Numbered from the stretch's first letter, positions 3,322-58,755 are shown. The stretch is 61,204 nt of DNA from a virus (IMGVR_UViG_3300045988_122465), one strand, 5' to 3'. The notes: generated from the letters alone by a model not told the origin. Numbers and translations are program-made.

Positions 3322-3359
3322 AATCGTATATTTTTAGCGTTTATACTATTTTGTTGTAC

Positions 3360-3481: not shown

Positions 3482-3492
3482 TAAAAAAATAC

Positions 3493-3777
3493 ATGCTTAT
3501 GAACCTAAGAATAACCGAACATTGTAAATCGCAAGGTATTACCCTGCAAGATTTAGCTGACAAAATGGGGGTAGCCCGTTCTACATTAGCTAATACGTTG
3601 TCAAAAGGCAATCCCACTATTGAAACACTTTCCAAGATAGCCGATGCTCTTGGAGTGGAAGTCACAGCTCTATTCGAGAAGTCTTCCGACGAAGTAGTCG
3701 GAGCCATCCGGATCGGGGACAGCACTCATGTTGTGAATAGCAAGGAGGATATTAAGAAACTGGCGGAAAACCTTTAA
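3493..3777 (+). CDS. XRE-family HTH repressor-like protein with a short conserved C-terminal extension
   Basis: GITLQDLADKMGVARSTLANTLSKGNPTIETLSKIADALGV; paralog of 33024..33302. Confidence 0.85.
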   Translation: MLMNLRITEHCKSQGITLQDLADKMGVARSTLANTLSKGNPTIETLSKIADALGVEVTALFEKSSDEVVGAIRIGDSTHVVNSKEDIKKLAENL

Positions 3778-3790
3778 AAATAGCAAAAGA

Positions 3791-4582: not shown

Positions 4583-4638
4583 TAAATCTCAATTTCACTA
4601 ATAATTAACCTATTAACCACCAAACGCCCACATCCAGT

Positions 4639-4788
4639 TTGCCGACCGATGCGAGCGTTTTTTATACGAAGGTAAAGCAAAAGCAAGCGGAAATAGCCAT
4701 AAACAGGGTGATAGACTATACCAACAATCCAGAAAAATATACTGAATATATAGAGATGAGAGCAGATATTATGCTGATGAAAGGATAA
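4639..4788 (+). pseudogene. Ghost 3' end of a second integrase gene
   Basis: Translates to ...VFYTKVKQKQAEIAINRVIDYTNNPEKYTEYIEMRADIMLMKG*, aligning with the int C-terminus YYTRTRAIQAKAAVERVIDYVNNPDKYKDVIEFRERLILLQQ*; no upstream coding part. Confidence 0.75.
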
Positions 4789-6428: not shown

Positions 6429-6504
6429 ACTGGAGACTTATTTAAGTTAATAACAAAAACATCATAATTCAAGAACGAAGTTATGATCGCATTTATTTCC
6501 CATA

Positions 6505-6993
6505 TTATATTTTTAAACATTCAATATTATTATTGTTTACAAAATCTTCAAACTCACCTTTCAATTCCCTACTCAATTTTAATTCGCTATTCCAAAGAGG
6601 TAATCTTTTATTTTGTATAACAGACTCCAATATTAAACAGTATTCTACTAGTAACGGATTGTCATTTTCTGTATTATACCAACATATTTCCAATTTGCAG
6701 ATAGATAGCGCACGCATTTTTTCAGGCCACAGTTTCCATCTAGGAGTCCTTTGCTGCTTCCCAATTATTCGTCTTTTTAGCCCTCCTTTGCGATGCACTG
6801 TCTTTCCATTTTCTATATGCCCTGAACTTCCAATATAAACTGGAACCTTCGTCCCTTTAAAATAACCGTATACAATATACACTCCACAACAATCATCAGG
6901 AATTTGAGCCTTCTCGCATTTTCTATTCAAATTGTCATCAATAGCAAATTTTAAACATCCCTGTTTATTATAGCGATTTAATAAATCAAACAT
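6505..6993 (-). CDS. GIY-YIG-like nuclease domain protein
   Basis: CGVYIVYGYFKGTKVPVYIGSSG...GLKRRI; start overlaps the upstream gene end by 8 nt. Confidence 0.5.
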   Translation of the reverse strand: MFDLLNRYNKQGCLKFAIDDNLNRKCEKAQIPDDCCGVYIVYGYFKGTKVPVYIGSSGHIENGKTVHRKGGLKRRIIGKQQRTPRWKLWPEKMRALSICKLEICWYNTENDNPLLVEYCLILESVIQNKRLPLWNSELKLSRELKGEFEDFVNNNNIECLKI

Positions 6994-7690
6994 ACCTTTC
7001 CAAATGTTTTTTTATAATTTCTGCCATCTCCTTTAACATATCATCCTTTACATCCGCACTTAGCTGACGAGTATGGATTACAAGTTTTCTACCACCGGCA
7101 TCATGATGAGTATAAAACCAATTCCCTTTATTAAACAAAAATCTACCGACATCATCACCATCATAAGTGACACCAAAAATCTTATCTATCTCGCGAATAT
7201 TGTCATTATTCTGAATATAATTAGAACATGCCAATATAATCACAGGAAAACTTTGAATAAAGGAGGATACCTGGAATAATTCTTTCCGTGAGGAAATTCC
7301 ACTTTTATCGGCTTGAGCAGTTCGGAGGCTAGGGGCATCATTTATCTCGGTAGTAAATATTTGAGTTGGGAAATCAACATACCGATTGTGAAATCCTTCG
7401 CTGCCATAGATATAATCTTTTAATCTCTGATACTTGCTCCAAGTATTTACACCCCACCCTTTTGCTACGTTAACATCTTGTTCTACTTTATGACATAACT
7501 CCATAATTGTATCATTACTAACATGATTATCCCACATAGATGCATTGCTGTTATAAAACTCATCAGGTTCTTCCATTGCAGACTCTTTACCCACTATTAG
7601 TATTTTAGAGTTAGGGTTTCCCCAACCAACATATTTACCATTTTGATTACAGTAATTTACAAATTCCTTAAATTCATCTAAGTATTCCAT
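6986..7690 (-). CDS. Hypothetical protein, possibly uracil-DNA-glycosylase-superfamily fold
   Basis: ILIVGKESA (motif A-like), FTTEINDAP, VIILACSN, LVIHTRQLS (motif B-like) in UDG order; TAtaTTTG box about 25 nt upstream of the ATG. Confidence 0.4.
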   Translation of the reverse strand: MEYLDEFKEFVNYCNQNGKYVGWGNPNSKILIVGKESAMEEPDEFYNSNASMWDNHVSNDTIMELCHKVEQDVNVAKGWGVNTWSKYQRLKDYIYGSEGFHNRYVDFPTQIFTTEINDAPSLRTAQADKSGISSRKELFQVSSFIQSFPVIILACSNYIQNNDNIREIDKIFGVTYDGDDVGRFLFNKGNWFYTHHDAGGRKLVIHTRQLSADVKDDMLKEMAEIIKKHLERYV

Positions 7691-8809: not shown

Positions 8810-10210
8810 TTAAAACGTTTTATTTGCGATTAGGAAGGAAGCAATTTTTTTAGCTATTTCCTTGAATCCTTTTTTAGGGTGTGTACCATCACTATCATTA
8901 AAGTATTGGCTGAAATTATACTTATTCCACCCCAACGTATTATACATATCACAGCATGGGATATGGTTAAGTCTTACTTCATTTTCAATAGCTTCACTAA
9001 AATCTTTAAGTGTCCCATTTTTCAATGAGCCAGAGGTGTTAGGCTCATTGCTTCCTGATTGTGGAAGATATGGTTGTTCAGTGCTACCCATCCTATCACT
9101 CCAATACCTATCATCCCATTCGGAAATAGAGTAAGACGAATATCGAACAATAGGGGTGAACCAATAGATTTTCACATGAGGGTATGTCGATGATAACAAT
9201 CTTATAATTTCATTGACAGCTCCTAAAGTCTTACCAATATCCGTACTTCCACTCTCACCTAAAGTCGCAGAATATGAAGGCCAGTCATTTGTTCCTGCAA
9301 AAACTGTGACTGCATCAACAGAATCCCAATCTACGGACTTCAATATTTGAACTATTGCAGTATTATCGTCGGACGTATTGTTTTTTAAATATTCTGCTGC
9401 ATTTTCCTGAATTGTAAAATCTCCCGAACAAGCAGCCTTAACCAGATTTATGATATCTAATGCAGCATAAGCCTGAGTTAAACTGGTAGGAATTTCTACA
9501 GGATTAGTCCTTTGCCGAATCTGTGTGCCACCAATTCCTACATTGTACACTTTACATTGATATATATCCTGCATATAATCACTATACCTTAAATTATATG
9601 CATCCGCTATCTCCGTAATACTATCCCCAAAACACAATATCGTCTTACCGATAAGATTATCATCTCTATTTTCTATCGTTGAAATCCGGGTTTCTAAAGA
9701 AGATATTTTATCTTTCTGTGACAACTTCGATGTTACTTTTTGCCTATTCAAAGAAGAGGTGTCTATTTCCGTATTAGGTTGCAAATATTGATTTATTATA
9801 GAGTCCCAATTAACTATGACATGAAGGACGTATTTACCCGAAACGCCACTTGCTGAAGAAGCGGATATTTTTAGTTCTTCCATTCCTGATTTGGGACCAT
9901 CATTATAATATTTAGAAAAATACGTTTTACCGGAAGCATCATCAAAGCGTACTATTGTTTTATAATCCCCGGAAGAGTTGCCTAGATAAGTACAATATAG
10001 TTTGTCTGGCAGAGAAATACTTTCATCCAGAACTTCCAACCACAAAGAAGTTACAGCTAATAGAAATATTTTATCATTATCATTTTTCTCAATCACACCT
10101 GATGTAGGATTGCTATAATAATATAAATTTTCGTTATTTCGGTCAATAGTTTTCGCAATGACTCCCCACTTTTGTTCGGAGTCTTTTGCTATATCAAATA
10201 TCTTTTCCAT
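8810..10210 (-). CDS. Tail-associated SGNH/GDSL hydrolase (candidate polysaccharide esterase)
   Basis: ILCFGDSITE (block I), FAGTNDW (block III), DGTHP (block V) in the C-terminal half. Confidence 0.7.
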   Translation of the reverse strand: MEKIFDIAKDSEQKWGVIAKTIDRNNENLYYYSNPTSGVIEKNDNDKIFLLAVTSLWLEVLDESISLPDKLYCTYLGNSSGDYKTIVRFDDASGKTYFSKYYNDGPKSGMEELKISASSASGVSGKYVLHVIVNWDSIINQYLQPNTEIDTSSLNRQKVTSKLSQKDKISSLETRISTIENRDDNLIGKTILCFGDSITEIADAYNLRYSDYMQDIYQCKVYNVGIGGTQIRQRTNPVEIPTSLTQAYAALDIINLVKAACSGDFTIQENAAEYLKNNTSDDNTAIVQILKSVDWDSVDAVTVFAGTNDWPSYSATLGESGSTDIGKTLGAVNEIIRLLSSTYPHVKIYWFTPIVRYSSYSISEWDDRYWSDRMGSTEQPYLPQSGSNEPNTSGSLKNGTLKDFSEAIENEVRLNHIPCCDMYNTLGWNKYNFSQYFNDSDGTHPKKGFKEIAKKIASFLIANKTF

Positions 10211-10214
10211 AATA

Positions 10215-12221
10215 TCATTCGTTTTTAATTAATGTTTCATTTGAAATTAAAGTTGAGTTGCTTAACATTGTCAAGTAACTGGAGATAATCATGTTTATCT
10301 TTTGAGGAGATTTGTCAGATAAAGTACCATTAAAAGTAAACCTGTTACCATTAACACTAGGAGTCCCCAAAGACATCCCATTTATTGTCAAAGATGTAAC
10401 TTTGTCTGCTGCACCCTTCATTGTTACAGCAATTCTCAATTTAGAATTAATCGGATAGTAGTTCCCTACAATAGCAGGAAGGGTATCTATATAACAATCT
10501 ACTACTTGATATTCGGAATTACTCTTCACTATCGGTCTGAACTCCACCATATCCGGATACAGCGTACCCAGCTTGTGCTTCTTCAACTGACGCTCGATCA
10601 AGAACTCGGACATACTATAAGGGAAGGACATGAGAGAGTAGATAGCTCCGTTGAAGAAACGAGAATCATTATCTCGAATCGTGCCTAACCACATATCAGT
10701 TCCATCTTCTGCTGCACCTGCTGTTATAGATTGCCCGCAATAAGAGTATTTAGATAAATAAGATATACTTCTAGTAGAAATAAAATTTAGACCAGAAGTA
10801 GCTTGACCAAAACTATAAACGCTATTTCCGGCAGTTTCCACAAATGCCCCCGGATTATTCTTTGACGATATAGCTCCAATATTAGCAAATATTTCTCTAT
10901 CGGTTACTACCGTATAATCCTTGTAAACAGGCATCCCTGTCACCTTACCGAAGTCATTGATACCGTCAAGGCATAGACCACCTGCGTGGGAAGGAATTTG
11001 GGTGATGGTAACACTATTACCCATACCCGGATTACCAAAACCACAAAATCGACCAGATCCACTATACAAAGTGTTATGTGAAGCTGGTAATATATTCACC
11101 CCATCTACAATTTTAACTGATTTAGGCGACCCAGTTTCATCAATATAGCTATAATCAATATCAGCTCCTGTTTTAATAACCTTAAACGAAGGAATGTCTG
11201 GATATTCTTTACTCCCTACGCTATAATACAGTAGCATAATATGACTTATAGCATTTTTACAATCTATCTTACTACTCGTTATAGTTGAATTACTACTGTT
11301 CCATATACTAGAATCGAGAAAATCAACCTCATACTTCCCAATACCTGAATCCCCCTTCCAAGCAATATTGTTCAACTGAATATCCCTACCGTTGCCGGAA
11401 AAGTCAATCAGCTTGTCGCCAAACTCTGCGTGGTTCTCATTGGTGATTCCCTGCTTGATGGTATTACACAGTATATTAGGCTTAAGAGTTCTATCCAAGT
11501 TGAAGTAGGCGATTACCTGGTTGATTTGGTCAGTAGTCAGCACCTTGTTGGCGATGATTGTCCAGTACCAAGCAAGTTGAGATAGTTGCGCAGATGAATG
11601 AGTTCCGTTTACACTAAATACAGAATCAATATTAGCTGGATTAGCCTTATCAACAGAATAATCTTTTTTATCTCCTAATATATCGTTTACAATAGCTATA
11701 TTAGATAAATTTCCCTTATATCCATATATACCTATTTTACCTATTGCGCTAATAGTATTTGTTAAGAAATCATTTCCTTGAATGAAATAGTTGTTTCTTG
11801 CATAATTTCGAGAAGATATAAACCCTATCTGATGAATCATACTCACCACCGTAATCTCGCTACTTCCTCCCAGCATCTCCTGTACGGTCTTGGTGGAAGT
11901 AATAAGGTCGTCGATTCCGTCGGTGACGAAGGCACCATAGTAAGGACTATCTTTATCTGCGTAGCCACTTCCTTCAGTGTAAGCTGCATTGCTAATCACA
12001 AACGGATTGTCAGGGTCCACCAAGTTCTTGATAATAGCCCTGTCCGGATCGTCGTTGCTTTTACCGTAGCAGATGCAGACGGCTTTCAGGGAGGCTAAGA
12101 CTTCTGGGTCGATGTAAGAACGGTCGGAACCGGAAGAAGAGCCACGGGAGGGCGAACCGATTCGGTTTAATCCGATCCGGTTAAGCCCCACTACATTTAA
12201 AGACAACCTGTTAAGCTTCAT
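10215..12221 (-). CDS. Tail fibre / receptor-binding protein with a LamG/concanavalin-like region
   Basis: 668 aa; ...DSRFFNGAIYSLMSFPYSM... jelly-roll-like motif; N-terminal GLNRIGLNRIG repeat. Confidence 0.55.
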   Translation of the reverse strand: MKLNRLSLNVVGLNRIGLNRIGSPSRGSSSGSDRSYIDPEVLASLKAVCICYGKSNDDPDRAIIKNLVDPDNPFVISNAAYTEGSGYADKDSPYYGAFVTDGIDDLITSTKTVQEMLGGSSEITVVSMIHQIGFISSRNYARNNYFIQGNDFLTNTISAIGKIGIYGYKGNLSNIAIVNDILGDKKDYSVDKANPANIDSVFSVNGTHSSAQLSQLAWYWTIIANKVLTTDQINQVIAYFNLDRTLKPNILCNTIKQGITNENHAEFGDKLIDFSGNGRDIQLNNIAWKGDSGIGKYEVDFLDSSIWNSSNSTITSSKIDCKNAISHIMLLYYSVGSKEYPDIPSFKVIKTGADIDYSYIDETGSPKSVKIVDGVNILPASHNTLYSGSGRFCGFGNPGMGNSVTITQIPSHAGGLCLDGINDFGKVTGMPVYKDYTVVTDREIFANIGAISSKNNPGAFVETAGNSVYSFGQATSGLNFISTRSISYLSKYSYCGQSITAGAAEDGTDMWLGTIRDNDSRFFNGAIYSLMSFPYSMSEFLIERQLKKHKLGTLYPDMVEFRPIVKSNSEYQVVDCYIDTLPAIVGNYYPINSKLRIAVTMKGAADKVTSLTINGMSLGTPSVNGNRFTFNGTLSDKSPQKINMIISSYLTMLSNSTLISNETLIKNE

Positions 12222-30305: not shown

Positions 30306-30362
30306 TTTATGGAAGTAAAAATACCACCAATGCAGATGATTAGTAAATATTTAAGCTTCCCA

Positions 30363-30390
30363 TTCACGACAATGGATTGATTGTCGTGAA
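30363..30390. promoter_or_regulatory. Perfect hairpin TTCACGACAAT-N6-ATTGTCGTGAA upstream of the scaffold gene
   Basis: 11-bp inverted repeat; same 9-bp core as 40667-40690. Confidence 0.5.
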
Positions 30391-30480
30391 TACGGTATAA
30401 AAGTAAGAAGGAAGGAAGAGGAGAGGGAATAATTGAATGGATGAAAAACAACAATTGGGGTATTGTTGGAAAATGGCATA

Positions 30481-30519
30481 AAAAAGGCGTGAAACGGATT
30501 GGAATCACACCTTTTTTTT
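30481..30519. terminator. Bidirectional rho-independent terminator
   Basis: aaaaaggcgtga...tcacaccttttttttg: stem flanked by an A-run and a T-run. Confidence 0.6.
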
Positions 30520-30576: not shown

Positions 30577-30990
30577 TTACAGTTTTACTTCAAGTTCTTT
30601 ACCAGTCAGAAAAAAATACAGATTTTGAAGTTGATGGACATACAATACTTTATAAACCGCTGGGATCGTTAATATTCCATTATAAGCTTTATTAGTAATA
30701 TAAAACAAATCTCCTGTATTTTGCTCTAGTTTTAAACCAATAGCAAACTTATCTCCAATCTCTTTTGAAAAACATTTACAATCAGAAACATAATTAAATC
30801 CGGCATCCACCAGGATTTTTTCAGTCAAAGAAACGCCTTCAAGCAGATGATAATCGTATTGATTTGAATTACCTTTTACGCTAACTAAATAGTCATTTAT
30901 ACTAAAGACAACTCCTACGGCGGACTGAGCTCCAATAGTATTATTGGGTAATACATAATTACCTATTCTTAATTCTCTAATATCTATCAT
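30577..30990 (-). CDS. Hypothetical 137-aa protein
   Basis: ORF track; C-terminal YVHQLQNLYFFLTGKELE. Confidence 0.55.
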   Translation of the reverse strand: MIDIRELRIGNYVLPNNTIGAQSAVGVVFSINDYLVSVKGNSNQYDYHLLEGVSLTEKILVDAGFNYVSDCKCFSKEIGDKFAIGLKLEQNTGDLFYITNKAYNGILTIPAVYKVLYVHQLQNLYFFLTGKELEVKL

Positions 30991-30995
30991 AACAG

Positions 30996-31298
30996 TTACA
31001 CAGCAGGAGTTAGTTCAACATTCAACCCCAAAGCGGAAGCAATACGATAAAAGGTAGAAACTTTAGGTTCTGTCTTTCCTGTTTCCACACGGGAAATATA
31101 AGACTTATTTGTTCCTATCTTTTCGGCGAGTTCTGCTTGTGTCATTTTTGCTTTCTTCCTTGCCTCTTCAATTATTTGCCCAGTAAAGAAAGCATTAGCT
31201 CTATCTTCGGCAGCCTTACGCTCCGGAGTCCCTTCTTTGCCAAACGCAGCATCTAATTGCGCATCGACATCAAACATCTTTAGTTCTTTTTCGCTCAT
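30996..31298 (-). CDS. HigA-like XRE HTH antitoxin
   Basis: MTQAELAEKIGTNKSYISRVETGKTEPKVSTFYRIASALG. Confidence 0.75.
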   Translation of the reverse strand: MSEKELKMFDVDAQLDAAFGKEGTPERKAAEDRANAFFTGQIIEEARKKAKMTQAELAEKIGTNKSYISRVETGKTEPKVSTFYRIASALGLNVELTPAV

Positions 31299-31611
31299 AA
31301 TATTCTTTCTTTAGTTTTAATGCTTTATCAATTTCTCTATCAGGAGTTTTCTGTGTTTTCTTCTGAAAGCCATTGAATAAAATCACAATCTGTCCTTCAT
31401 CAAAACAGAAGAAAATCCGATAAATATTACTTTGCCACTCAATTCTTAACTCAAACAGACCGTCTTTAATAGACTTCACATATTTATTGGATAGTCTATC
31501 TACGGTCTTTAACATGAGTAAACCGTATAGCACCTTTTCTTGAGCACCTTTGTTCAAGGTGTCAAAAAAGTCTTTATAGTAGTTTTCGTATGCTATTATC
31601 TTTCTGTTCAT
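31270..31611 (-). CDS. RelE/HigB (Gp49-like) toxin
   Basis: YYKDFFDTL...DGLFELRIEWQSNIYRIFFCFDEGQIVILFNGFQKKTQKTP; likely start 31611. Confidence 0.7.
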   Translation of the reverse strand: MNRKIIAYENYYKDFFDTLNKGAQEKVLYGLLMLKTVDRLSNKYVKSIKDGLFELRIEWQSNIYRIFFCFDEGQIVILFNGFQKKTQKTPDREIDKALKLKKEYYERKRTKDV

Positions 31612-31733
31612 ACGGCAAAGATAGAGAATGTTTATCAGTTGAGCAACTTTTGGGCGAATATTTTCATCCCTATACAAAAATAGCGGCAACTCCGAAGAAT
31701 CACCGCTAATGTTCCATTTTTCTTATTTAAAAA

Positions 31734-31850
31734 TTATAGACCTTGTAATTTTTTTGACCTAGAAATGTTTTTCTGTTCTATTTTTCTGATCTGCTCATTC
31801 TTTGCTGCTTGCTCCTCCTCGATTTCTGCAAGTTCCTCTTCGATAATGTG
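31734..31850 (-). pseudogene. Ghost 3' end of a second portal gene
   Basis: Translates HIIEEELAEIEEEQAAKNEQIRKIEQKNISRSKKLQGL*, aligning with the portal C-terminus DRIEEELAEIKEEQEEKINAEMQKQNIKKGE*. Confidence 0.7.
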
Positions 31851-32366
31851 TTAATTTTCCCTATTATATATCTCTTTAATTTTCCCCTCTGCAAACTCAT
31901 TTATATCAGAAGAAGTACATCCTGATTCGTTAAAAAAATCACTTATGTCAAAATAAATCTCCTTATGTTTATTCCCTTTCGATATATATATTATATCAAA
32001 AGGAATTGATTTATTCCCGTCCAATGTTATATCTCTCAGCATTTGCATACCCCAACTATAATCAGGGTAGTATTTATTTATCCATTCTCTTTCAGAATGC
32101 ACTCCCAGAGCATGTGTTATTGCATGGATTTTAACAATATCAAAATGTTGGCTTCGAAGCATTATTTCAAAAGTTATTGTCTCATCTTTATAGTTAATTA
32201 CAAACTCCCTTTTCTTGAAAAGCCCCTTTATAAAGTCATAAATTTGCTTTATCCCATCTCTTAGTGACGGAATAAAACCTATTACTACAGCTATTATAAC
32301 AATAGTAGCTATAATCCAATTATCTAAAAGGAAATTAATAATTGTGTCGTATTTTGTTGCTTCCAT
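31851..32366 (-). CDS. Membrane-anchored 171-aa protein (cassette B payload)
   Basis: N-terminal TM WIIATIVIIAVVIGFI; last gene of the HTH operon. Confidence 0.6.
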   Translation of the reverse strand: MEATKYDTIINFLLDNWIIATIVIIAVVIGFIPSLRDGIKQIYDFIKGLFKKREFVINYKDETITFEIMLRSQHFDIVKIHAITHALGVHSEREWINKYYPDYSWGMQMLRDITLDGNKSIPFDIIYISKGNKHKEIYFDISDFFNESGCTSSDINEFAEGKIKEIYNREN

Positions 32367-32367
32367 A

Positions 32368-32787
32368 TTATTCCTTGTCTTTATTTAAAATAGCAATGCC
32401 ATATATTAAACCTTCCATTTCAGAAGCTGCATTTATTTCATCACCAGAATACCACACATCTTTTACTTTATCCTGTATCTGAATAGCTCTTTGATATGAG
32501 TCTGGATATAAATCTTTGTTTTCTTCCATAAAAGATAAACCAGCTTGAATAAACCCTCTATTTGTAAACTTCATATTACGTTTATTTATCAGTTCAACAG
32601 CCGCCTTTTGTACACTTTTAGTTCTTTCCAACTTAGTATTTAATTGCACTAACCATCCACTAACAAACACAACAATAACAAAAGAAATCCATAGAAAGTA
32701 TTTGTTTGTTCTGAATTTGTCAGGAATAACAAATCCTACTATCGTTATTATCCCTGATACTATTGTTAATAATAAAAGATAATTCAT
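32368..32787 (-). CDS. Two-TM 139-aa membrane protein (cassette B payload)
   Basis: LLLLTIVSGIITIVGFVI and FLWISFVIVVFVSGWLV. Confidence 0.6.
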   Translation of the reverse strand: MNYLLLLTIVSGIITIVGFVIPDKFRTNKYFLWISFVIVVFVSGWLVQLNTKLERTKSVQKAAVELINKRNMKFTNRGFIQAGLSFMEENKDLYPDSYQRAIQIQDKVKDVWYSGDEINAASEMEGLIYGIAILNKDKE

Positions 32788-32795
32788 TTTCTCAA

Positions 32796-32996
32796 TTAAT
32801 ATATCATATCATCAACATATCCAATACAAGCATAAGAGCCCTGAAAAGATGTAAGTACTAAATATTTCCCATCTCTATAATTAATCTCTACATTTGACAA
32901 CTGATGCCCTATGCTTGCACAGTACTGAATGATGTCATTCAACGAAGTTACAGGAACTTGTGTATATCCATTAGGATGAAAATAAATCGTCTTCAT
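32796..32996 (-). CDS. Hypothetical 66-aa protein (cassette B payload)
   Basis: ORF track, 27 nt after the HTH gene. Confidence 0.55.
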   Translation of the reverse strand: MKTIYFHPNGYTQVPVTSLNDIIQYCASIGHQLSNVEINYRDGKYLVLTSFQGSYACIGYVDDMIY

Positions 32997-33023
32997 AATA
33001 TTTGCTTCCTATTTTTTATTGGT

Positions 33024-33302
33024 TTATAATTTTCCAGCTAAATTCTTCACATCCTCCGCAGACTTTACTTCATGCACGGTATCGCCCACTTTTACGAAGC
33101 CTACTATATCTCCAGTGTTTGACTTTTCAAATAGTTCAGTTACTGGGACACCCAAAGCATCGGCGATTTTTTCCAATGTACCAATAGTGGGGTTGCCATT
33201 AATTGCTTTTGATAGCCCAACTCGTGACAAGCCTATTTTTTCAGCGAGTTCAGTTTGATTGATTCCTGCCTCTTTACATAGTTCTAAAATTCTAAATCTC
33301 AT
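33024..33302 (-). CDS. XRE-family HTH repressor-like protein (paralog of 3493..3777)
   Basis: INQTELAEKIGLSRVGLSKAINGNPTIGTLEKIADALGV plus the same C-terminal extension. Confidence 0.85.
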   Translation of the reverse strand: MRFRILELCKEAGINQTELAEKIGLSRVGLSKAINGNPTIGTLEKIADALGVPVTELFEKSNTGDIVGFVKVGDTVHEVKSAEDVKNLAGKL

Positions 33303-33495
33303 ATATGTATATATTTAGTTTACTCCCATTATTTATGGCAAAGTTACTCAAAGTTTTCATATTAGCTAAATAAGACAACTAAAAGTATTCTTTTTATAGT
33401 TTATTAACTATCTATATTTTGCTAATTGAATACTTATAGTTTACTTTGTAATATCGAAATGATAACTAAAAGTATAATTTAAAACATATAAGAGT
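33303..33495. promoter_or_regulatory. Divergent promoter/operator region of cassette B
   Basis: Repeats AACTAAAAGTAT (x2) and TAGTTTA(C/T)T (x3); TAtaTTTA box. Confidence 0.5.
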
Positions 33496-33825
33496 ATGAG
33501 CACAAAATTTAAAAGTCAGATGAAAGAGGTAATGCAAATGGCATGGTCTTTTGTTCGCAAGAACGGTTATTCAATGAGCGAAGCATTGAAATGCGCATGG
33601 GCTAATTTAAAGCTGAAAGCGGCTTTGAAAGTGAAGATAGTAGAGTTCTACTTCAAAAAGACCGATGGCACGCTACGCCAAGCCTTTGGTACTCTCAAAG
33701 AGAATCTTATCGGTGAGGTAAAAGGTACAGGCAGAAAGCCGAATGACAATCTGCAAGTGTACTGGGACACAGAGAAAGAAGAATACAGATGTTTTAAGAA
33801 GTGTAACCTTATTAAAATCGCATGA
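33496..33825 (+). CDS. Hypothetical 109-aa protein (paralog of 57504..57836)
   Basis: Alignable over the full length, e.g. SMSEALKCAWAN.KLKA...F.K.DGT.R.A.GTL...RCFKK.NL.KIA. Confidence 0.75.
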   Translation: MSTKFKSQMKEVMQMAWSFVRKNGYSMSEALKCAWANLKLKAALKVKIVEFYFKKTDGTLRQAFGTLKENLIGEVKGTGRKPNDNLQVYWDTEKEEYRCFKKCNLIKIA

Positions 33826-33842
33826 CAATGAAAAAGAAAAGT

Positions 33843-34064
33843 ATGGCAACAGTTGAGATTGAATGCTCAAATACACATTCAATACCAGTATTCAGCGACT
33901 TTTTAAGTGAAGTACAAAAGCGGTTTGATATTGAGAAAGAAGCTAAGAATGAATTATATTCTTTTATCATACAGATGGGGTTGTTAGACCAATTTAGAGA
34001 GTTTTCTCAGCATTATAAGGGCGTGAATCACCATGCTGCGTGTATTGATATGCTTGCAGTGTAG
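33843..34064 (+). CDS. Hypothetical 73-aa protein (second copy of 2361..2582)
   Basis: The track ORF starts at 33822; MATVEIE start at 33843. Confidence 0.75.
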   Translation: MATVEIECSNTHSIPVFSDFLSEVQKRFDIEKEAKNELYSFIIQMGLLDQFREFSQHYKGVNHHAACIDMLAV

Positions 34065-34144
34065 TTCTTAACACGATTATCCAAAGGCAGCCTTCGCACG
34101 ACATTAAAGACTGCCTTTATTATTCACTCTTAAATGAAATAATT

Positions 34145-34687
34145 ATGGACGAAATTTGGAAAGATATTGAAGGGTACGAAAACGATTACCAAGTATCAAA
34201 TTTAGGCAGGGTAAAATCCTTGCCAAAGAAATGCTGGAACGGCAAAGGGTATTGGTTTAGAGATGGGCGTATTTTAACGCCAGTCAAAAGCCAAAAGGGG
34301 TATTTGAATGTATGGTGCAGAAAGAACATATTCAAGGTTCATCGCTTGGTTGCAAATGCTTTTATACCTAATCCGCAAAACCTACCACAAGTAAATCACA
34401 TAGACGGTGATAAAACCAATAATTGCGTTGCCAATCTTGAATGGGTTACTGATGGTGAGAACCTTCTACACGCATATAGAGTTCTTGGTAGAAAGCAAAA
34501 AACTGGTAAAAACCACCATAATTCACGAGCTGTTATACAATTGAAAGACGGCAAAATTATAAATTTATTTGATAGTCTTAATGAAGCAGCACGCGCGACA
34601 GGCGCTCATTTTTCGGGCATTTCAATGTGTTGTAGTGGAAAAATTAAAAAGCACAAGGGGTATCAATGGAAATACAAAGAGGAGTGA
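34145..34687 (+). CDS. HNH homing endonuclease (NUMOD4-like plus HNH_3 plus one IENR1-like repeat)
   Basis: MDEIWKDIEGYENDYQVSNLGRVKS, HRLVANAF...VNHIDGDKTNN...NLEWVT; stop is 2 nt from the portal stop codon. Confidence 0.8.
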   Translation: MDEIWKDIEGYENDYQVSNLGRVKSLPKKCWNGKGYWFRDGRILTPVKSQKGYLNVWCRKNIFKVHRLVANAFIPNPQNLPQVNHIDGDKTNNCVANLEWVTDGENLLHAYRVLGRKQKTGKNHHNSRAVIQLKDGKIINLFDSLNEAARATGAHFSGISMCCSGKIKKHKGYQWKYKEE

Positions 34688-34689
34688 TT

Positions 34690-36189
34690 TCACTCCCCTT
34701 TCTTTATGTTTTGTTTCTGCATTTCAGCGTTTATCTTTTCTTCTTGTTCTTCTTTTATCTCAGCGAGTTCTTCTTCGATGCGGTCAATATTTCCAGCAAA
34801 CATTACCCCATGTCGTTGCGACCATACACCACCTGACACAGCCTTTACAGCTACATTGACTTTATCTTCTAAATTATCAAGGCGATACGGAACAACTTCT
34901 GTACTAATATCTATCGTTTCAGTTGCTTTGTTAAATTCAGATGGATTGATAGAGCCTAAAGCGGAAACAATGAAATTGACTCTTCGTTGTAAAAATTCAC
35001 CTATCATCTCGGCATGATTTTGAACTTGCAAATGTGTCGAAAGAAACACGTAATCGAAAGCCACTCCCGACAAGGCATTTCCAGCGCCGCTCAACTTTTC
35101 AAAACTGATTTGCGGTGTATTTGTCATAGAATATGCTTTTTCAAAAAGGGTTTCTACCTCAAATTTTACGGTATCATTTGCTTGGTTCCACGTCAGATAT
35201 TGGGCATCCGCACCTTCACCTGTAAGTTTGACCATTCTATCTTTAACCTTACCCATGAAACCCTCTACATCACCAATTAGCTTCAACAGTGGGAAGAAAT
35301 GATAGTCTATGCAGTCGGCATAATTGGATAAAAGTTTCTCCAAGCGTATACGGAAGGTTTTTATCTTCTTGCAATAAGGTTCAGGTCGGTAGACATAGAG
35401 AACCGGCAGTTTGGGGAATCCGTGAACGAAAGAAATTCTTTCTTCATACCCTTTAGATAAATCCCATTGATAGACTGCTTTATCCGTGATAGTCATAAAG
35501 CAGGTAACTTCCGAATCATCCATGAGCTTTTTCTTGTACTCACGGGAGAAAGCAATCATCTTGCCTTCATCGTTGAAAAACGGATAAAGTTTATCCCCTC
35601 GGAATGGTGACCACAACACGCTTTTCAACTTCTTAGTAGGCTTTACCTTACCTCCAAAAGTGGTCTTCACTTTCTTCCAAAACTTCGCCCAGAACGAATC
35701 ATCATCGGTCGCGTACCAATACTCGGCTACCTCTTGCTCGGATAACCAGGAACGGACAATCTTCTTGTTCTGGTATTTGATTTTATTGGATTTGAATACA
35801 GCTTTGACCGCATCCAACAGCTTCTTTTCGTCATCATCAGTTGGAGTGCAATCCATAGACGGTTCTGTGCCGACCGTGAAAGCGGTTTGAATGTTCACTA
35901 TATCCTGCTCCAAAGGAATGGAGATACGGTTCACCGGTTCGGTTTTGTACTGTGCTTCAATCTCATAAGTCTTGCCGGTCTTTTCATCGAAATCTTTTTC
36001 CGCTTCCTTTTCAAGCACTTTTCTGTCTGGGTACTTCTCTTTATCAACCATGATTTCATGGCGTTCTGGATTCCAGTCGTCCCAAAGCTTGCAACGGTCA
36101 GGAAGTTCGGTTTTTCTACCTTTCTTTAAGTAGCTTATTTTCTGCCCGATGTCAGGCAATGCTAATATTTCTTCAAGCGTTAATGGCAT
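34690..36189 (-). CDS. Portal protein
   Basis: 499 aa directly downstream of the large terminase. Confidence 0.75.
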   Translation of the reverse strand: MPLTLEEILALPDIGQKISYLKKGRKTELPDRCKLWDDWNPERHEIMVDKEKYPDRKVLEKEAEKDFDEKTGKTYEIEAQYKTEPVNRISIPLEQDIVNIQTAFTVGTEPSMDCTPTDDDEKKLLDAVKAVFKSNKIKYQNKKIVRSWLSEQEVAEYWYATDDDSFWAKFWKKVKTTFGGKVKPTKKLKSVLWSPFRGDKLYPFFNDEGKMIAFSREYKKKLMDDSEVTCFMTITDKAVYQWDLSKGYEERISFVHGFPKLPVLYVYRPEPYCKKIKTFRIRLEKLLSNYADCIDYHFFPLLKLIGDVEGFMGKVKDRMVKLTGEGADAQYLTWNQANDTVKFEVETLFEKAYSMTNTPQISFEKLSGAGNALSGVAFDYVFLSTHLQVQNHAEMIGEFLQRRVNFIVSALGSINPSEFNKATETIDISTEVVPYRLDNLEDKVNVAVKAVSGGVWSQRHGVMFAGNIDRIEEELAEIKEEQEEKINAEMQKQNIKKGE

Positions 36190-37469: not shown

Positions 37470-37981
37470 TTCAGCTTGTCTTTAATCCAGGAATCAATAC
37501 TAATACCGTGGTTTATGTTGGTAGGAATATCAGCATCTTCATCCTGTTTACGTTCAATCCTCCTCCAGTCTTCATCGTAATGGTACAACCAGGTCATTTG
37601 AGCACTCAAATTGGGAGCCAATTCACCTTCTACAGTTTGAACTTCTTCCTCACCTGTCAGTTTACCGTCCTTATCCCGCAGCTTTCGAATAGTAGTGTTC
37701 TTTGTTTTGATACCACCAAGGGCCATAGCAAGGAACTTTGCCCGGACAAGAGAGTTTATTGCACAACGCGCGCGTGAGAGGGTTTGACTTAATTGACTGA
37801 ACTCTCTTTTCTTCCTACAAAAAGTTTCTGGTTCAATTCCAATGGCATGAGCTATTTCTCCGTCAGTGAATCCCTTTTTGGCATACGACTCTACGAGAGA
37901 AAGGAATTCCTCGCTTGTGTAATCAAACTTAGGCTTTCTTCCTCCTTTACCTTTTTTGTTTTGAGATTCACTTTTTGTCAT
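37466..37981 (-). CDS. terS: Terminase small subunit (HTH)
   Basis: Basic N-terminus, GFTDGEIAHAIGIEPETF HTH, overlaps the terL start. Confidence 0.65.
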   Translation of the reverse strand: MTKSESQNKKGKGGRKPKFDYTSEEFLSLVESYAKKGFTDGEIAHAIGIEPETFCRKKREFSQLSQTLSRARCAINSLVRAKFLAMALGGIKTKNTTIRKLRDKDGKLTGEEEVQTVEGELAPNLSAQMTWLYHYDEDWRRIERKQDEDADIPTNINHGISIDSWIKDKLK

Positions 37982-37985
37982 AATC

Positions 37986-38180
37986 TTATCCGTTAGCTAA
38001 ACCTCGGCTAGCAGTTGTGTAACCCCTTCTATCTCTGAAATTGGAGAAAGGAAGCAGTGAAGAGTCTACTCTTAAACTTCTTGCCAGATTTTGGGTTACA
38101 TTATACCCTGCACGAGAGATTCGTTGGTTATTTGATATGTTTCTTGCAATATTACCACTTGCTGCATAGGTTTTTCTCAA
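37986..38180 (-). CDS. Small basic Arg/Asn/Gly/Ser-rich ORF S1 (TTG start)
   Basis: ...NIARNISNN...ASRGLANG*; paralog of S2 and S3; ends 4 nt before terS. Confidence 0.4.
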   Translation of the reverse strand: MRKTYAASGNIARNISNNQRISRAGYNVTQNLARSLRVDSSLLPFSNFRDRRGYTTASRGLANG

Positions 38181-40504: not shown

Positions 40505-40536
40505 AATCGTGTCAAATTTAAATCAATACTCAATAG

Positions 40537-40608
40537 TTGCGGGGGGCTGAATCGAACAACCGACCTTCACCAAGTCAAAGTGAAAAGCTACCACTGCTAC
40601 ACCCCGCG
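40537..40608 (-). tRNA. Phage tRNA, anticodon GAC (Val) by position, with atypical features
   Basis: CGCGGGG-UG-UAGC-AGUGGUA-GCUU-U-UCACU-UUGACUU-GGUGA-AGGUC-GGUUG-UUCGAUU-CAGCC-CCCCGCA-A; C1/A72 mismatch, U at position 37. Confidence 0.65.
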
Positions 40609-41241: not shown

Positions 41242-41379
41242 CTAATAGAAAAACATTTTACAGTGGTTATTGTACAATCTTGATCTCAACGGGCTAGGGT
41301 TGGCGAGCCAAGCAAAATGAAAATTTAGGCTAATTTCACACATTACGTTTTTATGGTGAATCCATTGTTCTTTTGTCAT
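41242..41379 (-). CDS. Possible 45-aa ORF
   Basis: ACGATTATGAC start context only. Confidence 0.25.
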   Translation of the reverse strand: MTKEQWIHHKNVMCEISLNFHFAWLANPSPLRSRLYNNHCKMFFY

Positions 41380-41389
41380 AATCGTATTA

Positions 41390-41599
41390 TTAAAGATTCA
41401 TATATAAACAAGTCAGATCACATTCTTCATCGTAGTCGTATTCAAGCGATACGGGTGCAAAGTATTGCTGTATCTTCTTTGCTGCTGTTTCATTCTTACC
41501 CTCAAAAGAGAAAGTAAAAGAGCGCTTGCCTCTGACTGTTATTTCAACCGGTATGCCTGCTACCTTAGTCATGTTGTTTTCAAGTTCTTGTTTTGTCAT
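41390..41599 (-). CDS. Hypothetical 69-aa protein
   Basis: ACGATTATG start at 41599 (track start 41632). Confidence 0.6.
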   Translation of the reverse strand: MTKQELENNMTKVAGIPVEITVRGKRSFTFSFEGKNETAAKKIQQYFAPVSLEYDYDEECDLTCLYMNL

Positions 41600-41609
41600 A
41601 ATCGTATAT

Positions 41610-41792
41610 TTAAGCGTTAATACCAATTGCATTTCTCATAAAGTCACTCGCTTGCTCTACTGACATATCCAACTTCTTTTGGATCAGAATAAGCATACAG
41701 CTTACTTGCTCTTTTGTATTTAAGTTGCCTTGTACAAATTCTAACATGATGAACTTTTCTATTGTTTTTTGTTTAATTACTGATGTTGCCAT
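41610..41792 (-). CDS. Hypothetical 60-aa protein
   Basis: ACGATTATG start. Confidence 0.55.
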   Translation of the reverse strand: MATSVIKQKTIEKFIMLEFVQGNLNTKEQVSCMLILIQKKLDMSVEQASDFMRNAIGINA

Positions 41793-48568: not shown

Positions 48569-49738
48569 TTAGAATCTCACGTTTGTTAATTGTCTTCCTT
48601 TAGAGCAAACTACCCATTTACCATTACCGCTATCAAACAACCGTAAATCAGAGACTTCGCCAAAACGTTTGATGTTACCGCATAAATCTACAATCCAGCC
48701 ACATTCTTTGGAAGGGTGGGGGCGAATAGCCCGACCGACTATCTGATACCACATAGCAAGTGACATCGTAGGACGTGCCATAACAACAGTGTCAAGTTCT
48801 GGATAATCAAAACCCGTAGTCAATACCCCGACATTCGCCACTACTGGTATTTCCCCAGTTTTGAAATGTTGGAGAATCATTTCACGAGTTGCTTTTGGAG
48901 TATCACCGGATACAATAGCGCAACCAGGTATTGAATAGGTCAACCGCTCTGCTTCTTTCAAGAACCGAGTAAATACTAAAATGCCTTTTCTCTTACCACC
49001 TGCTTTGGGATTCATCAGTCTTTGGACGATATGAACGAGATAACCGTAGAAGTCTATCCGTTCATATTCTCGTTGAACTGATTTATCCGTATAGTCTGCA
49101 CCGGTGGTATTTACTTTCAGGTTAAGTTCATTCCATCCTGAAGGATTCATCGGATAATAGTTTAGCTTCGCCAAGTAGCCCATATCTAATAGGGTTGATA
49201 CCTGTACATGGTAAATGACCTCTGAAAAGACATGAGGTTTTGTCCGAGTGATAAATTTCAGCATAGAACCAAAGTCACGGCTGGAACTTAAACGATACGG
49301 TGTAGCTGTCAGTCCAAGAACCTTACACTTCACCGCATCGAAGAAATCCTTGTACATTCCCTCTTTAGGGTTAACAAGGTGACATTCGTCCACGATGATG
49401 TTCTTGAAGTGGGTGAACAGTTCAGGATGATTCTTCACACTGCCGATGGTGGCAAATGTTATCCGGCTTATCTCCTTTGAGTTAAAGGATGCTGAATAGA
49501 TACTGCAATCAAGAATGCCGTATGAGCAGAGTTTTTTGAAGTTTTGCTCTAAAATTTCTTTTGAGGGCTGAAAAACCAATGTATGACCGTCAAGCCTTGC
49601 GGCTATATCCGCTATGATAAGGCTCTTTCCACTCCCCGTAGGCAGAACCATGATAGCATTCGTCTTCTTCGCCCTGTTATTGAAGAAAGAAACGGCAGCA
49701 TCAGAGGCTTTCTGTTGGTAATCACGTAGTTTGTACAT
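48569..49738 (-). CDS. SF2 DEAD/DEAH-box helicase
   Basis: LPTGSGKS, VDECH, helicase C-terminal motifs; likely start MYKLRDYQ at 49738. Confidence 0.85.
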   Translation of the reverse strand: MYKLRDYQQKASDAAVSFFNNRAKKTNAIMVLPTGSGKSLIIADIAARLDGHTLVFQPSKEILEQNFKKLCSYGILDCSIYSASFNSKEISRITFATIGSVKNHPELFTHFKNIIVDECHLVNPKEGMYKDFFDAVKCKVLGLTATPYRLSSSRDFGSMLKFITRTKPHVFSEVIYHVQVSTLLDMGYLAKLNYYPMNPSGWNELNLKVNTTGADYTDKSVQREYERIDFYGYLVHIVQRLMNPKAGGKRKGILVFTRFLKEAERLTYSIPGCAIVSGDTPKATREMILQHFKTGEIPVVANVGVLTTGFDYPELDTVVMARPTMSLAMWYQIVGRAIRPHPSKECGWIVDLCGNIKRFGEVSDLRLFDSGNGKWVVCSKGRQLTNVRF

Positions 49739-49898
49739 ATCTATCTTCTGATTTAATGATAAAAGGGGAATCCTCACTAAGTTTGGAAAGAAATGTCCGG
49801 ATTATATAAGCCTGTTTCTTACTTAATCCAACCGGAGAGAATGAACCATCATTATTCTTGACCATCATGACAAATGTTCCTGCTTCCAAATCATTCAT
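49722..49898 (-). CDS. Possible 58-aa ORF
   Basis: ATGA overlap with the NinG-like stop; MNDLEAGTFVMMVKNNDGSFSPVGLSKKQAYIIRTFLSKL... Confidence 0.4.
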   Translation of the reverse strand: MNDLEAGTFVMMVKNNDGSFSPVGLSKKQAYIIRTFLSKLSEDSPFIIKSEDRYVQTT

Positions 49899-55207: not shown

Positions 55208-55292
55208 TGGCGGGTGATAGAGGAATCGAACCCCTCTCAATTGTGATAATTGGCTGCGCAGCACAAAGCTCTAACCGATAAGCTAACCACCC
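55208..55292 (-). tRNA. 85-nt tRNA-like gene with a 16-nt anticodon loop, CCA encoded
   Basis: GGGUGGU-UA-GCUU-AUCGGUUA-GAGC-U-UUGUG-[CUGCGCAGCCAAUUAU]-CACAA-UUGAG-AGGGG-UUCGAUU-CCUCU-AUCACCC-G-CCA. Confidence 0.6.
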
Positions 55293-57255: not shown

Positions 57256-57507
57256 CTATGCGTATCTGCTTAAACCTTGAATCAGACAAAGGGCATCATA
57301 ATTCATGTCGTTATCTTCGTCTGTATCCGGTCCTGAAAGGATGGCTTCATAGGTATCAATTTCTTCTTGTATCACTTCTATGATGTCAGCCTTGCAATCT
57401 ACGTTGTAAACTCTGCGGGCTGTTTCTTCATCCATATTCTGAACATGGTCCAGGTCTCTGTATAAGGCATTCAAGCCTTGTTCAATCTCGCAACGTGTCA
57501 TAATCAT
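57256..57507 (-). CDS. Hypothetical acidic 83-aa protein
   Basis: ORF track. Confidence 0.6.
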   Translation of the reverse strand: MIMTRCEIEQGLNALYRDLDHVQNMDEETARRVYNVDCKADIIEVIQEEIDTYEAILSGPDTDEDNDMNYDALCLIQGLSRYA

Positions 57508-57836
57508 GCAATTTTTAAAAGGTTAGCTTTCTTGAAACATCTGAACTCACCGCGTTCTGTATCGAAATAGGTTTGAACCGTATCGTTCTTTGCTCTTTTG
57601 TCATTACCGGTTACTGTCGGCATGTATTTTTCGCAAAGCGTGCCGTAAGCTTCTCTCATTGTGCCATCTACTTTCTGAAAATAGAACTTCACAATCTTGC
57701 TTTTCATTTGAGCTTTCAACTTCATATTTGCCCACGCGCATTTCAGTGCTTCGCTCATTGAAAAACCGTTTCTCTTTACAAAAGACCATGCTAGACTCAT
57801 GACCTCTTTCATTTGATTTTTAAAATTCGTGCTCAT
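57504..57836 (-). CDS. Hypothetical 110-aa protein, first gene of the main early operon (paralog of 33496..33825)
   Basis: ACGATTATG start; full-length similarity to the cassette B copy. Confidence 0.75.
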   Translation of the reverse strand: MSTNFKNQMKEVMSLAWSFVKRNGFSMSEALKCAWANMKLKAQMKSKIVKFYFQKVDGTMREAYGTLCEKYMPTVTGNDKRAKNDTVQTYFDTERGEFRCFKKANLLKIA

Positions 57837-58022
57837 AATCGTGTATTTTAATATGTTTATACTATTGTATATGACCTTAAAAATGTCTTTCTTTGCAAAA
57901 GTGATTAGGTTATCACTGTTTGATGATGCAAATATACTAGAAGTTCTATATCTAGCATAGAATTTCTAGTTAATTATTGTAAATATGCTAGGTTTTCTAT
58001 AATTAAAAACTAGAATATCTAT
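57837..58022. promoter_or_regulatory. Main lysis/lysogeny switch: divergent promoters plus four CTAGAAnnTCTAT-type operators
   Basis: Minus-sense CTAGTATATTTGCATCATCAAA; operators at 57937-57949, 57957-57969 (inverted), 57988-58000, 58010-58022. Confidence 0.65.
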
Positions 58023-58718: not shown

Positions 58719-58755
58719 TTTAAAGCTTAATGTGCAAACTGTTGAAACTAGTATT

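Follow-up and report, generated by a model that had tools for sequence, protein, structure and literature searches.

A nuclease-linked cassette with its own repressor region at the portal gene end of a temperate Bacteroidales phage

Introduction

How can a block of accessory genes come to occupy the 3' end of an essential phage gene, and what carries it from one phage to another? The question is raised by positions 31,734 to 34,689 of the viral sequence IMGVR_UViG_3300045988_122465, analysed here as a single stretch of 61,204 nucleotides (nt), hereafter the window. The element concerned, cassette B, adjoins the portal gene and comprises a convergent HNH nuclease gene, the small gene p73, a WYL_2/DUF2693 gene, a divergent control region, an XRE-family repressor gene, three payload genes (p66, p139 and p171) and a second, displaced portal gene end, referred to below as the ghost. 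This order had been proposed in an initial annotation, together with a related cassette A behind the integrase gene, and all open reading frames (ORFs) of cassette B were found where they had been placed. The comparisons described in this article make it, on balance, probable that cassette B is a free-standing homing-endonuclease gene (HEG) cassette that spreads through recombination stimulated by its nuclease and carries a repressor switch of its own together with cargo of defence type.

The 61.2-kb window is a prophage flanked by a perfect 48-nt direct repeat. It has a siphovirus gene order, with the integrase at the left end, lysis, tail and head genes on the (-) strand, terL and portal at 34.7-37.5 kb and the lysis-lysogeny switch near the right end; the host phage is a temperate Bacteroidales siphophage, carried as a gut Bacteroides prophage. 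Close relatives include the cultured phage BS-TP2 of Bacteroides salyersiae as well as several hundred contigs from IMG/VR, and prophage relatives also occur in genomes of Bacteroides, Parabacteroides, Phocaeicola, Paraprevotella and Prevotella. Portal 3' ends were translated for 80 IMG/VR relatives, 76 of which had enough downstream sequence to be counted, and cassette proteins were screened against Pfam, PHROG and PADLOC. L-numbers (L058, L019 and so on) denote fetched relative loci.

Replacement of the portal gene end

The portal tails of the 80 relatives split into two classes right after ...EIKEEQ, at codon 482. In the counted contigs, all portals facing a convergent HNH gene (40/40) end in a tail of the EEKRxAEMQKQxIKKGE type, and all portals with the native tail (AAKNEQIGNKEQKNAS and variants) are without HNH (35/35). 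The sole exception, L038, combines a cassette-type tail with the absence of HNH, and it carries an internal deletion from HNH through the XRE N-terminus, with the payload retained. The portal site is therefore polymorphic among the IMG/VR relatives, with 40 filled and 35 empty sites, and in GTDB genomes it is mostly empty. From the split between tail classes and their linkage to HNH it follows that the inserted DNA runs from ~31845 to ~34742, so that cassette B is, with respect to cassette-less relatives, an insertion of 2.9 kb. The stop codons of HNH and portal lie 2 nt apart, and the palindrome that spans them is kept in all cassette-bearing loci.

The foreign DNA had initially been put at 4.4 kb, an extent that has to be shortened to ~2.9 kb: the Gp49/HTH pair and the 137-aa (amino acid) gene at 30577-31689 are native to the position and no part of the cassette, since the cassette-less L058 has Gp49 at 99% and HigA at 95% identity in the same gene order. 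The pair itself (30996-31689), Gp49/HigB-like and HigA-like HTH (helix-turn-helix), is toxin-antitoxin (TA)-like and lies in a native variable region between portal and scaffold; relatives hold other TA-like pairs there, such as small ORF pairs in L019/L065 and L125. Compared with the window, L058 shows 95-99% nucleotide identity from the ghost onward and only 83% over terL and portal, and the window is thus a mosaic with a breakpoint at the cassette. L058 was not used as a pristine empty site because of an indel of ~100 nt in its own portal tail, and L019-type and other native tails served as the reference for the tail comparison instead. L058, L060 and L061, all cassette-less, have this insertion of ~100 nt within the native portal tail; it introduces a new stop codon, behind which the former tail end persists as a small ghost with no cassette involved.

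The ghost in the window, also proposed at the outset, is a real portal end. Read from 31844 to 31734 (-) it gives IEEELAEIEEEQAAKNEQIRKIEQKNISRSKKLQGL up to a stop codon, and the frame past the last payload stop reads IEEELAEIEEEQAAKNEQIRK..., paralleling the functional portal end ...RIEEELAEIKEEQEEKINAEMQ.... Over 174 nt from 31844, ghost and following hairpin are 83% identical (E ~3e-45) to the functional portal 3' end and terminator of cassette-less phages; the ghost is frame-decayed, because one lost T lengthens the reading frame. A ghost is present in every complete portal-site cassette reaching that far, BS-TP2 included (29 of the 30 listed loci; the thirtieth ends first). These ghosts belong to the portal lineage ADRVEEELAEIKEEQAAKN..., unlike the functional copy in the same genome, and their lineage matches functional portals of other Bacteroides prophages. 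The same configuration, a foreign replacement end with the native end kept downstream as a duplicate, is found at the portal, at the integrase and at the helicase N-terminus.

At the nucleotide level, the ghost 5' ends form two classes, with a spread of 6-8 nt within each. The first begins within ATGATTGATGATTTG, at codons 436-438, beside four unrelated payload-side sequences (~8 nt spread), and the second, to which the window ghost belongs, within CGCATCGAAGAAGAA, at codons 470-471, beside four more (~6 nt spread); on the payload side of the eight ghost junctions examined, no common motif was found. Near-constant ghost starts are also what a site-specific integrative element could produce, that is, a circle bearing a copy of the portal 3' end and integrating Campbell-style through a recombinase supplied in trans or through recombination between portal and ghost repeats. 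Indeed, integration into gene 3' ends is classically recognised by a replacement end and a displaced ghost, as in phages using the 3' ends of host genes, and portal/ghost direct repeats of 48-147 nt surround the cassette. Such an element is nonetheless improbable here, given that no cassette ORF has a tyrosine or serine recombinase or transposase domain in Pfam, PADLOC or PHROG, that the left crossover points vary, that the ghost starts scatter over several nt with no single core, and that the unrelated target genes would demand many specificities.

On the other side of the cassette, the portal genes of L062, L050 and L044 are 63-82% identical to that of L011, a member of the common cassette lineage, until ~145-180 nt before the stop, and 85-100% identical from there through the HNH gene. 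This jump has the form of a co-conversion tract of variable length, and on the portal side it speaks for recombination between homologous sequences; the flanking part of the target gene has thus been co-converted, as expected of a HEG. In L004 the segment from +9 to +4130 of the portal stop holds two cassettes, nested or in tandem, followed by a single ghost; its two HNH genes, three WYL_2 pieces and two XRE genes suggest serial insertions followed by partial deletions.

The nuclease, its leader and p73

The product of the cassette B nuclease gene, HNH_B, has NUMOD4, HNH_3 and I-HmuI NUMOD-like domains (Pfam) and the PADLOC label 'HEase'. It matches I-HmuI (1U3E) over its full length (E 4e-13, 174-residue alignment), with the catalytic motif NHxDGxxxNN...N of I-HmuI aligned and conserved, which places it in a homing-endonuclease family with the catalytic motif intact. 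The nuclease slot is interchangeable, being occupied by at least three divergent HNH types or, in L125, by a T5orf172/MUG113 nuclease. The L125 cassette (Bacteroides intestinalis, 9547-11996) is an XRE/WYL_2 cassette in the opposite orientation, lying directly after the native portal tail, with T5orf172/MUG113 in place of HNH and a p66 homologue that is 89% identical (tblastn).

As the HNH gene adjoins the portal and large terminase genes, a role as a packaging accessory of terminase and portal, as in HK97-like cos phages, with unrelated morons for neighbours, might be considered. The architecture NUMOD4/HNH_3/I-HmuI is not that of the small packaging HNH proteins, and paralogues stand beside integrase and helicase genes, which makes the packaging role extremely unlikely; it was rejected, HNH being absent in 35 close relatives with homologous terL and portal.

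The conserved hairpin noticed in the initial annotation is present in the HNH leader, at 34083-34118. It has 10-12 bp, with one C.A mismatch in copy B and a perfect stem in copy A, and precedes the HNH start codon in 20 of 25 distinct variants of the cassette, whichever gene lies before it. The consensus structure has -11.9 kcal/mol, and one stem pair varies between UG, CG and UA. Judged by its sequence, the leader looks like an attenuator or terminator that would limit nuclease expression; it also forms a module boundary.

Immediately upstream, p73 belongs to a narrow family (25 protein clusters in 5.8 billion sequences), without a match in Pfam, PHROG or PADLOC; its AlphaFold2 model is of low confidence (pLDDT 65).

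The repressor switch and the payload

The control region contains four copies of the 12-mer AACTAWAWRTAT (33309-33320, 33377-33388, 33430-33441 and 33464-33475), so that four of its five matches in the whole window fall there, against 0.27 expected. Across loci, the 12-mer occurs (in 3-4 copies) only with XREs at least 96% identical to XRE_B, the repressor of cassette B, and is absent with XREs of 77% identity or less, a WYL_2 identity of 96-97% notwithstanding. Its presence goes with the type of XRE and not with that of WYL_2; it is therefore the predicted XRE operator, and several putatively heteroimmune types exist. The operators of cassette A differ, being three palindromes with 32-33-nt spacing. 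A Bacteroides -7 box, TAACTTTG, precedes the XRE gene at 33346-33339 (-); the -7 boxes from the TAnnTTTG scan are suggestive only, and a sigma-70 promoter/terminator scan performed at chance level, its model being unsuited to Bacteroides.

An HTH repressor with repeated cognate operators between divergent genes is the arrangement of a CI/Cro-type module. The combination of an S24 autocleavage repressor and an HTH Cro partner is not what the cassette carries: its XRE protein consists of the HTH only, its partner is WYL_2, and Peptidase_S24 occurs only in the main-switch repressor. In the main switch of the phage (57504-58718), this repressor has 231 aa, and the place of Cro is taken by a divergent WYL_2/DUF2693 gene (57504-57836) that is 65% identical to the cassette WYL_2 gene. 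WYL_2 had no match among PDB sequences and may be the Cro or antirepressor analogue of this phage group. The name 'mini-immunity module' given to the cassette at first is thus a fair one, because the main switch also pairs a repressor with a 65%-identical WYL_2; the cassette repressor is without the autocleavage domain. A 21-nt block with the -7 box TATATTTG occurs both at 3359-3380, in the control region of cassette A, and at 57919-57940, in the main switch.

On the other side of the control region, the payload is highly variable. About 30 complete portal-site cassettes hold at least nine payload types of one to three genes each, starting -4 to +27 nt from the XRE stop; in the window, p66, p139 and p171 are tightly packed (31851-32996, -). 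These three genes recur in other combinations in L038, L125, L011-13, L179 and BS-TP2. Many payload proteins have N-terminal hydrophobic helices. As for possible functions, the DUF4145 payload type resembles the defence gene PD-T7-4 (E 3e-15), an ATPase pair like PDC-M29A/B is found in a neighbouring cassette, and the payload of cassette A is a DpnII-MboI restriction endonuclease (REase)-like protein.

The coordinates of all these features are collected in Table 1.

Table 1. Features of cassette B and its surroundings, with the module shared by cassette A (positions in the window)
Feature	Position	Strand	Remarks
Portal gene, SPP1_portal family (Pfam)	34690-36189	-	Resident-type body with cassette-linked last 17 codons
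Cassette-linked portal tail, EEKINAEMQKQNIKKGE and stop	34690-34742	-	Codons 483-499
Palindrome GGAGTGA-TT-TCACTCC	34681-34696		Over HNH and portal stop codons; terminator-like in both directions
HNH homing-type endonuclease gene	34145-34687	+	180 aa; free-standing; convergent with portal
HNH leader	34070-34144	+	75 nt; hairpin, then U-rich tract
p73	33843-34064	+	73 aa; small helical ORFan; ORF opens at 33822
WYL_2/DUF2693 gene (Pfam)	33496-33825	+	109 aa; first in nuclease operon
Divergent control region	33303-33495		Four operator-like 12-mers
XRE-family HTH repressor	33024-33302	-	92 aa; first in payload operon
p66	32796-32996	-	Payload gene
p139	32368-32787	-	Payload gene; two N-terminal hydrophobic helices
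p171	31851-32366	-	Payload gene; one N-terminal hydrophobic helix
Ghost of native portal 3' end	31734-31844	-	Codons ~471 to stop
Native terminator-like hairpin	31681-31708	-	Here after the ghost
Cassette A shared module	2210-2594	-	HNH N-terminus, leader hairpin, p73

Cassette A and other target sites

Cassette A occupies 1294-4788, at the integrase 3' end, with a ghost int end at 4662-4788; its genes are a foreign int tail, HNH_A (NUMOD4/HNH_3/NUMOD1), p73, an 86-aa and a 98-aa gene, XRE_A and the REase-like payload. The point where int diverges coincides with the ghost start (after YYT), and cassette A is therefore a clean insertion of ~3.4 kb. The foreign int tail, RTRAIQAKAAVERV...LILLQQ, is found only together with HNH_A, and the native int tail equals the ghost. 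L098 represents the empty integrase site in an otherwise identical gene order, and in L085 two ghosts stand in series at this site. Two integrase-site islands, L085 4381-7801 (the second island of that locus) and L096 1233-5347, are without a nuclease gene yet ghost-flanked; one holds a HipA-like kinase and a HIRAN-like protein, the other large ORFans, and their ghost starts lie 14 nt downstream of that of cassette A.

Cassette B had been described as mirroring cassette A. The two are indeed paralogous modules, but not exact mirrors, the 98-aa and 86-aa genes replacing WYL_2 in A. The near-identical segment said to be shared by them exists, roughly over the range indicated, as an inverted repeat of 240 nt at 94% (2355-2594 versus 33831-34070), including p73, whose two copies are 93% identical (A copy at 2361-2582); the second part, 97 nt (2210-2306 versus 34116-34212), reaches only 76%. 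Such a repeat could be taken to mean that B is a diverged intragenomic copy of A, poised to invert the 31-kb interval between them. Only the p73/leader segment is similar, however; HNH, the first-operon genes, XRE, operators and payload differ, and the p73 segment owes its 94% identity to the conservation of the narrow p73/HNH-leader module throughout the family, not to a recent event within the genome. The inversion that had been suggested was sought by scanning two hybrid junction patterns across all IMG/VR contigs, with no hybrid junction found, against 13 parental ones in the fetched loci, where the parental patterns, used as positive controls, matched 4 and 9 loci. Hence a duplication poised to invert is extremely unlikely. 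Two of its forms were rejected: a simple A-to-B duplication, with only ~385 nt similar and each cassette occurring alone in other phages, and inversion between the p73 repeats as an observed state, given the absence of hybrid matches.

A third target is a helicase gene. In L185, a 39-aa ghost N-terminus at the payload end is 88% identical to the intact helicase of the window, and the functional helicase has a diverged N-terminus beside HNH; L185 shares its contig with L051, whose portal site is empty. The window helicase (48569-49777) is an empty site for this third cassette type. In L185, L186 and L201 the helicase 5' end has been replaced by that of the cassette, with the old N-terminus persisting as a ghost, and L176 and L253 have a cassette at the helicase 3' end with a ghost C-terminus. 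Further cassettes are found between tail genes and upstream of the scaffold gene.

The population comparison thus revealed neither cassettes confined to fixed positions nor a segmental duplication free of ghosts. The cassette as first annotated, modular, linked to HNH and equipped with a payload and a repressor/operator region of its own, is supported, and so is its mobility: filled and empty sites occur among close relatives, payloads vary, and ghosts lie at portal, integrase and helicase. Mobility as such might also be passive. The gap between portal and scaffold would then be an ordinary moron or defence hotspot, where co-resident phages exchange modules by general homologous recombination over the conserved flanks (portal end, ghost and terminator), HNH being a selfish or decaying passenger without a part in moving the cargo. 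The nuclease-less ghost-flanked islands of the integrase site fit this picture, as do the persistence of HNH-deleted derivatives (L038, L136 and L164), the free modular exchange with breakpoints between XRE, WYL_2, p73 and HNH, and the variable TA-like morons that cassette-less relatives already hold here. Against it stand the perfect linkage of tail type and HNH, two unrelated nuclease families in the same slot, ghost starts tightly clustered at two positions across unrelated payloads, and the same cassette type in the ends of three different essential genes, which neutral shuffling would not predict; passive movement is judged a rather unlikely explanation.

Late transcription around the cassette

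The cassette had been thought to force late transcription over 4.4 kb, and the hairpin at 30363 to re-establish late expression beyond it. Neither proposal is borne out, the cassette being of 2.9 kb and lying in a natively interrupted operon. A terminator-like hairpin stands right after the portal gene in all relatives, and a terminator with palindromes precedes the scaffold gene in all relatives, with or without a cassette. These native terminators are conserved, and the operon is therefore already interrupted at this point without the cassette; in the native arrangement, a transcription unit probably ends with the portal gene. As for the hairpin at 30363, it too is a conserved native feature and not an adaptation to the cassette.

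The post-portal hairpin is a 12-bp, GC-rich stem with a T-tract, found at the same position in L019, L020, L058 and L064-L068; its sequence varies, yet the stem is kept in all lineages. The region upstream of the scaffold gene (30340-30515) contains a bidirectional terminator-like hairpin at ~30479-30512 and two palindromes with an ACAAT...ATTGT core (~30448-30470 and ~30363-30390), which are kept with or without cassettes; the L020-type lineage preserves the 30363 stem by two compensatory changes. This arrangement could be a late-promoter or leader element.

Other features of the window include two phage tRNA genes, Val-GAC and Arg-GCG (40536-40608 and 55208-55292), and defence-like genes at both prophage ends (5142-7690 and 58732-61028), namely an AbiH-family protein (5142-6428) beside two ORFans and, near attR, a 492-aa protein with a weak HSDR_N match and a 273-aa protein. 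A motif of ~17 nt, TTTTGTCATAATCGTAT, lies over the start codons of several (-) genes (2584-2621, 37956-37989, 41365-41402 and 41585-41622).

Proposed mechanism

Cassette B consists of three modules. The first is the replacement portal tail followed by the convergent I-HmuI-like HNH gene. The second is the XRE repressor with its own predicted operators, divergent from the operon of WYL_2, p73, leader hairpin and HNH, and the third the payload operon, which would be co-transcribed with XRE and codes for small membrane and soluble proteins that presumably act in superinfection exclusion or defence. If the element is spread by nuclease-stimulated recombination, as favoured here, the nuclease would, during mixed infection or in a superinfected lysogen, nick or cut cassette-less portal alleles, and repair would copy the cassette from the cassette-bearing genome, with the portal gene as homologous arm. 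In the founding event on a new backbone, the far side would be joined without homology at the break, a non-homologous join that would leave the resident 3' end as the ghost and fix the ghost start. Later, a second homology arm would be provided by ghost and downstream terminator region. The XRE promoter would drive repressor and payload in the lysogen, where repressor and leader terminator would keep the nuclease operon low.

Several points weigh against this proposal. Site-specific cleavage by HNH_B is a prediction, on which the clustered ghost starts bear only indirectly. The portal sequence at both ghost hot spots is identical in cassette-bearing and L019-type cassette-less phages, so that self-immunity lacks an explanation, unless recognition reaches into the divergent tail or a nickase cuts its own allele too; I-HmuI is a nickase that also cuts its own allele. 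As L096 and the second island of L085 show at the integrase site, islands without a nuclease gene can be ghost-flanked, and a resident HNH is therefore not strictly needed for ghost formation. The ghost at the helicase 3' end adjoins the nuclease side and not the payload side, and orientation rules are therefore not uniform. The payload-side junctions lie 0-25 nt after the last stop codon, which looks too tidy for random end-joining. Finally, p66, p139 and p171 of the window match no defence family in PADLOC, PHROG or Pfam above noise; weak payload matches below it were to SieB (E 0.009) and PDC-M10A (E 0.004).

A bolder version, which is put forward only tentatively and is more doubtful than the proposal above, would make the cassettes a distinct class of phage-borne gene drive. 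An HNH/T5orf172 slot would be wired to a private bistable switch of XRE versus WYL_2, the latter a paralogue of the switch gene of the host phage itself, and the nuclease would fire only in lytic or mixed infection, cutting the essential-gene ends (portal, integrase, helicase) of cassette-less competitors at defined points, with the two ghost hot spots as cleavage sites. The cassette would then repair these genes with its own end and install its defence cargo, so that anti-phage genes would be driven through gut Bacteroidales phages.

Relation to known systems

Free-standing HNH HEGs of phages, of the I-HmuI structural family, share with cassette B the nuclease fold and domain order, the position beside a conserved essential gene, the filled and empty sites and the co-converted target-gene sequence. 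The cassette, known here from its sequence, differs from them by adding a repressor/operator switch and variable multi-gene cargo, by its temperate phage host and by the duplicated gene ends. Intronless homing of the T4 Mob type is a related free-standing HEG behaviour.

A parallel to the gene-end replacement is offered by the mORFs (mobile ORFs) of fungal mitochondria, in which an endonuclease gene comes with a foreign C-terminus in atp6, atp9, cox2 or nad3 and the native C-terminus is left downstream (PMC3630166, which cites the Allomyces atp6 case). Both have an in-frame foreign end, a displaced non-functional native end and an endonuclease gene between the two, and in both the native ends of relatives are closer to the ghost than to the foreign end. 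By analogy, then, a nuclease gene by a hybrid essential gene, with a foreign end, a displaced native end and flank co-conversion, is the mORF pattern (PMC3630166). Unlike the mORFs, the cassette is found in a bacteriophage and not in an organelle, its nuclease is of the HNH or T5orf172 and not of the LAGLIDADG or GIY-YIG kind and is encoded without in-frame fusion, regulatory and cargo genes are carried, and a gene 5' end is also targeted.

The pattern would also fit intronless phage homing and the picture of HEGs as boundaries in ICP1-like phages (PMC10448857). In the HEG-islands of these lytic vibriophages, essential core genes lie between at least two HEGs (Barth et al. 2023, PMC10448857). 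Common to both are nuclease genes that mark exchange boundaries, cargo that moves with the HEG and interchangeable HEG families, T5orf172 and HNH included. The cassette is nevertheless not a HEG-island in this sense, since each has one nuclease and an accessory, variable cargo of lysogeny type, as well as its own repressor.

The defence hotspots and morons of P2/P4-type prophages are a further known system for comparison, resembling the cassette in a fixed position between core genes and in many alternative small defence-like sets, some with PD-T7-4, PDC-M29 or REase matches. The cassette, unlike these hotspots, is tied to a nuclease gene and a dedicated repressor, lies inside a gene end and forms a ghost. 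With the lambdoid immunity region (CI/operators/Cro) it has in common divergent promoters, repressor-specific repeated operators and several apparently heteroimmune types, and its switch mirrors the S24-repressor/WYL_2 switch of the phage itself; it departs from that region in a repressor without the autocleavage domain, in a partner that is a WYL_2 beta-barrel protein instead of an HTH Cro, and in controlling a nuclease operon, not the lytic programme. In the literature on Bacteroides phages this cassette type was not found described, the BV01/Salyersviridae paper and a later preprint making no mention of HNH or homing. The finding is described here as a free-standing HEG of temperate Bacteroidales phages that replaces gene ends in the manner of mORFs and in addition carries a repressor switch of its own and cargo of defence type.

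Significance

The ghost ends provide a simple signature, a duplicated and diverged gene end by a nuclease gene, with which further cassettes can be found. Moreover, the cultured BS-TP2 is a tractable system in which nuclease-driven inheritance could be tested, and the XRE/operator/WYL_2 modules are usable as they stand as orthogonal switches in Bacteroides. If the proposed mechanism is true, temperate gut phages would trade defence and superinfection-exclusion genes through a dedicated, self-regulated homing vehicle, and not only by chance recombination, and this vehicle would edit the ends of essential genes without destroying them. The mechanism would also account for the quick exchange of payloads at the fixed sites of abundant Bacteroides prophages, and homing endonucleases would be linked to the spread of defence systems.

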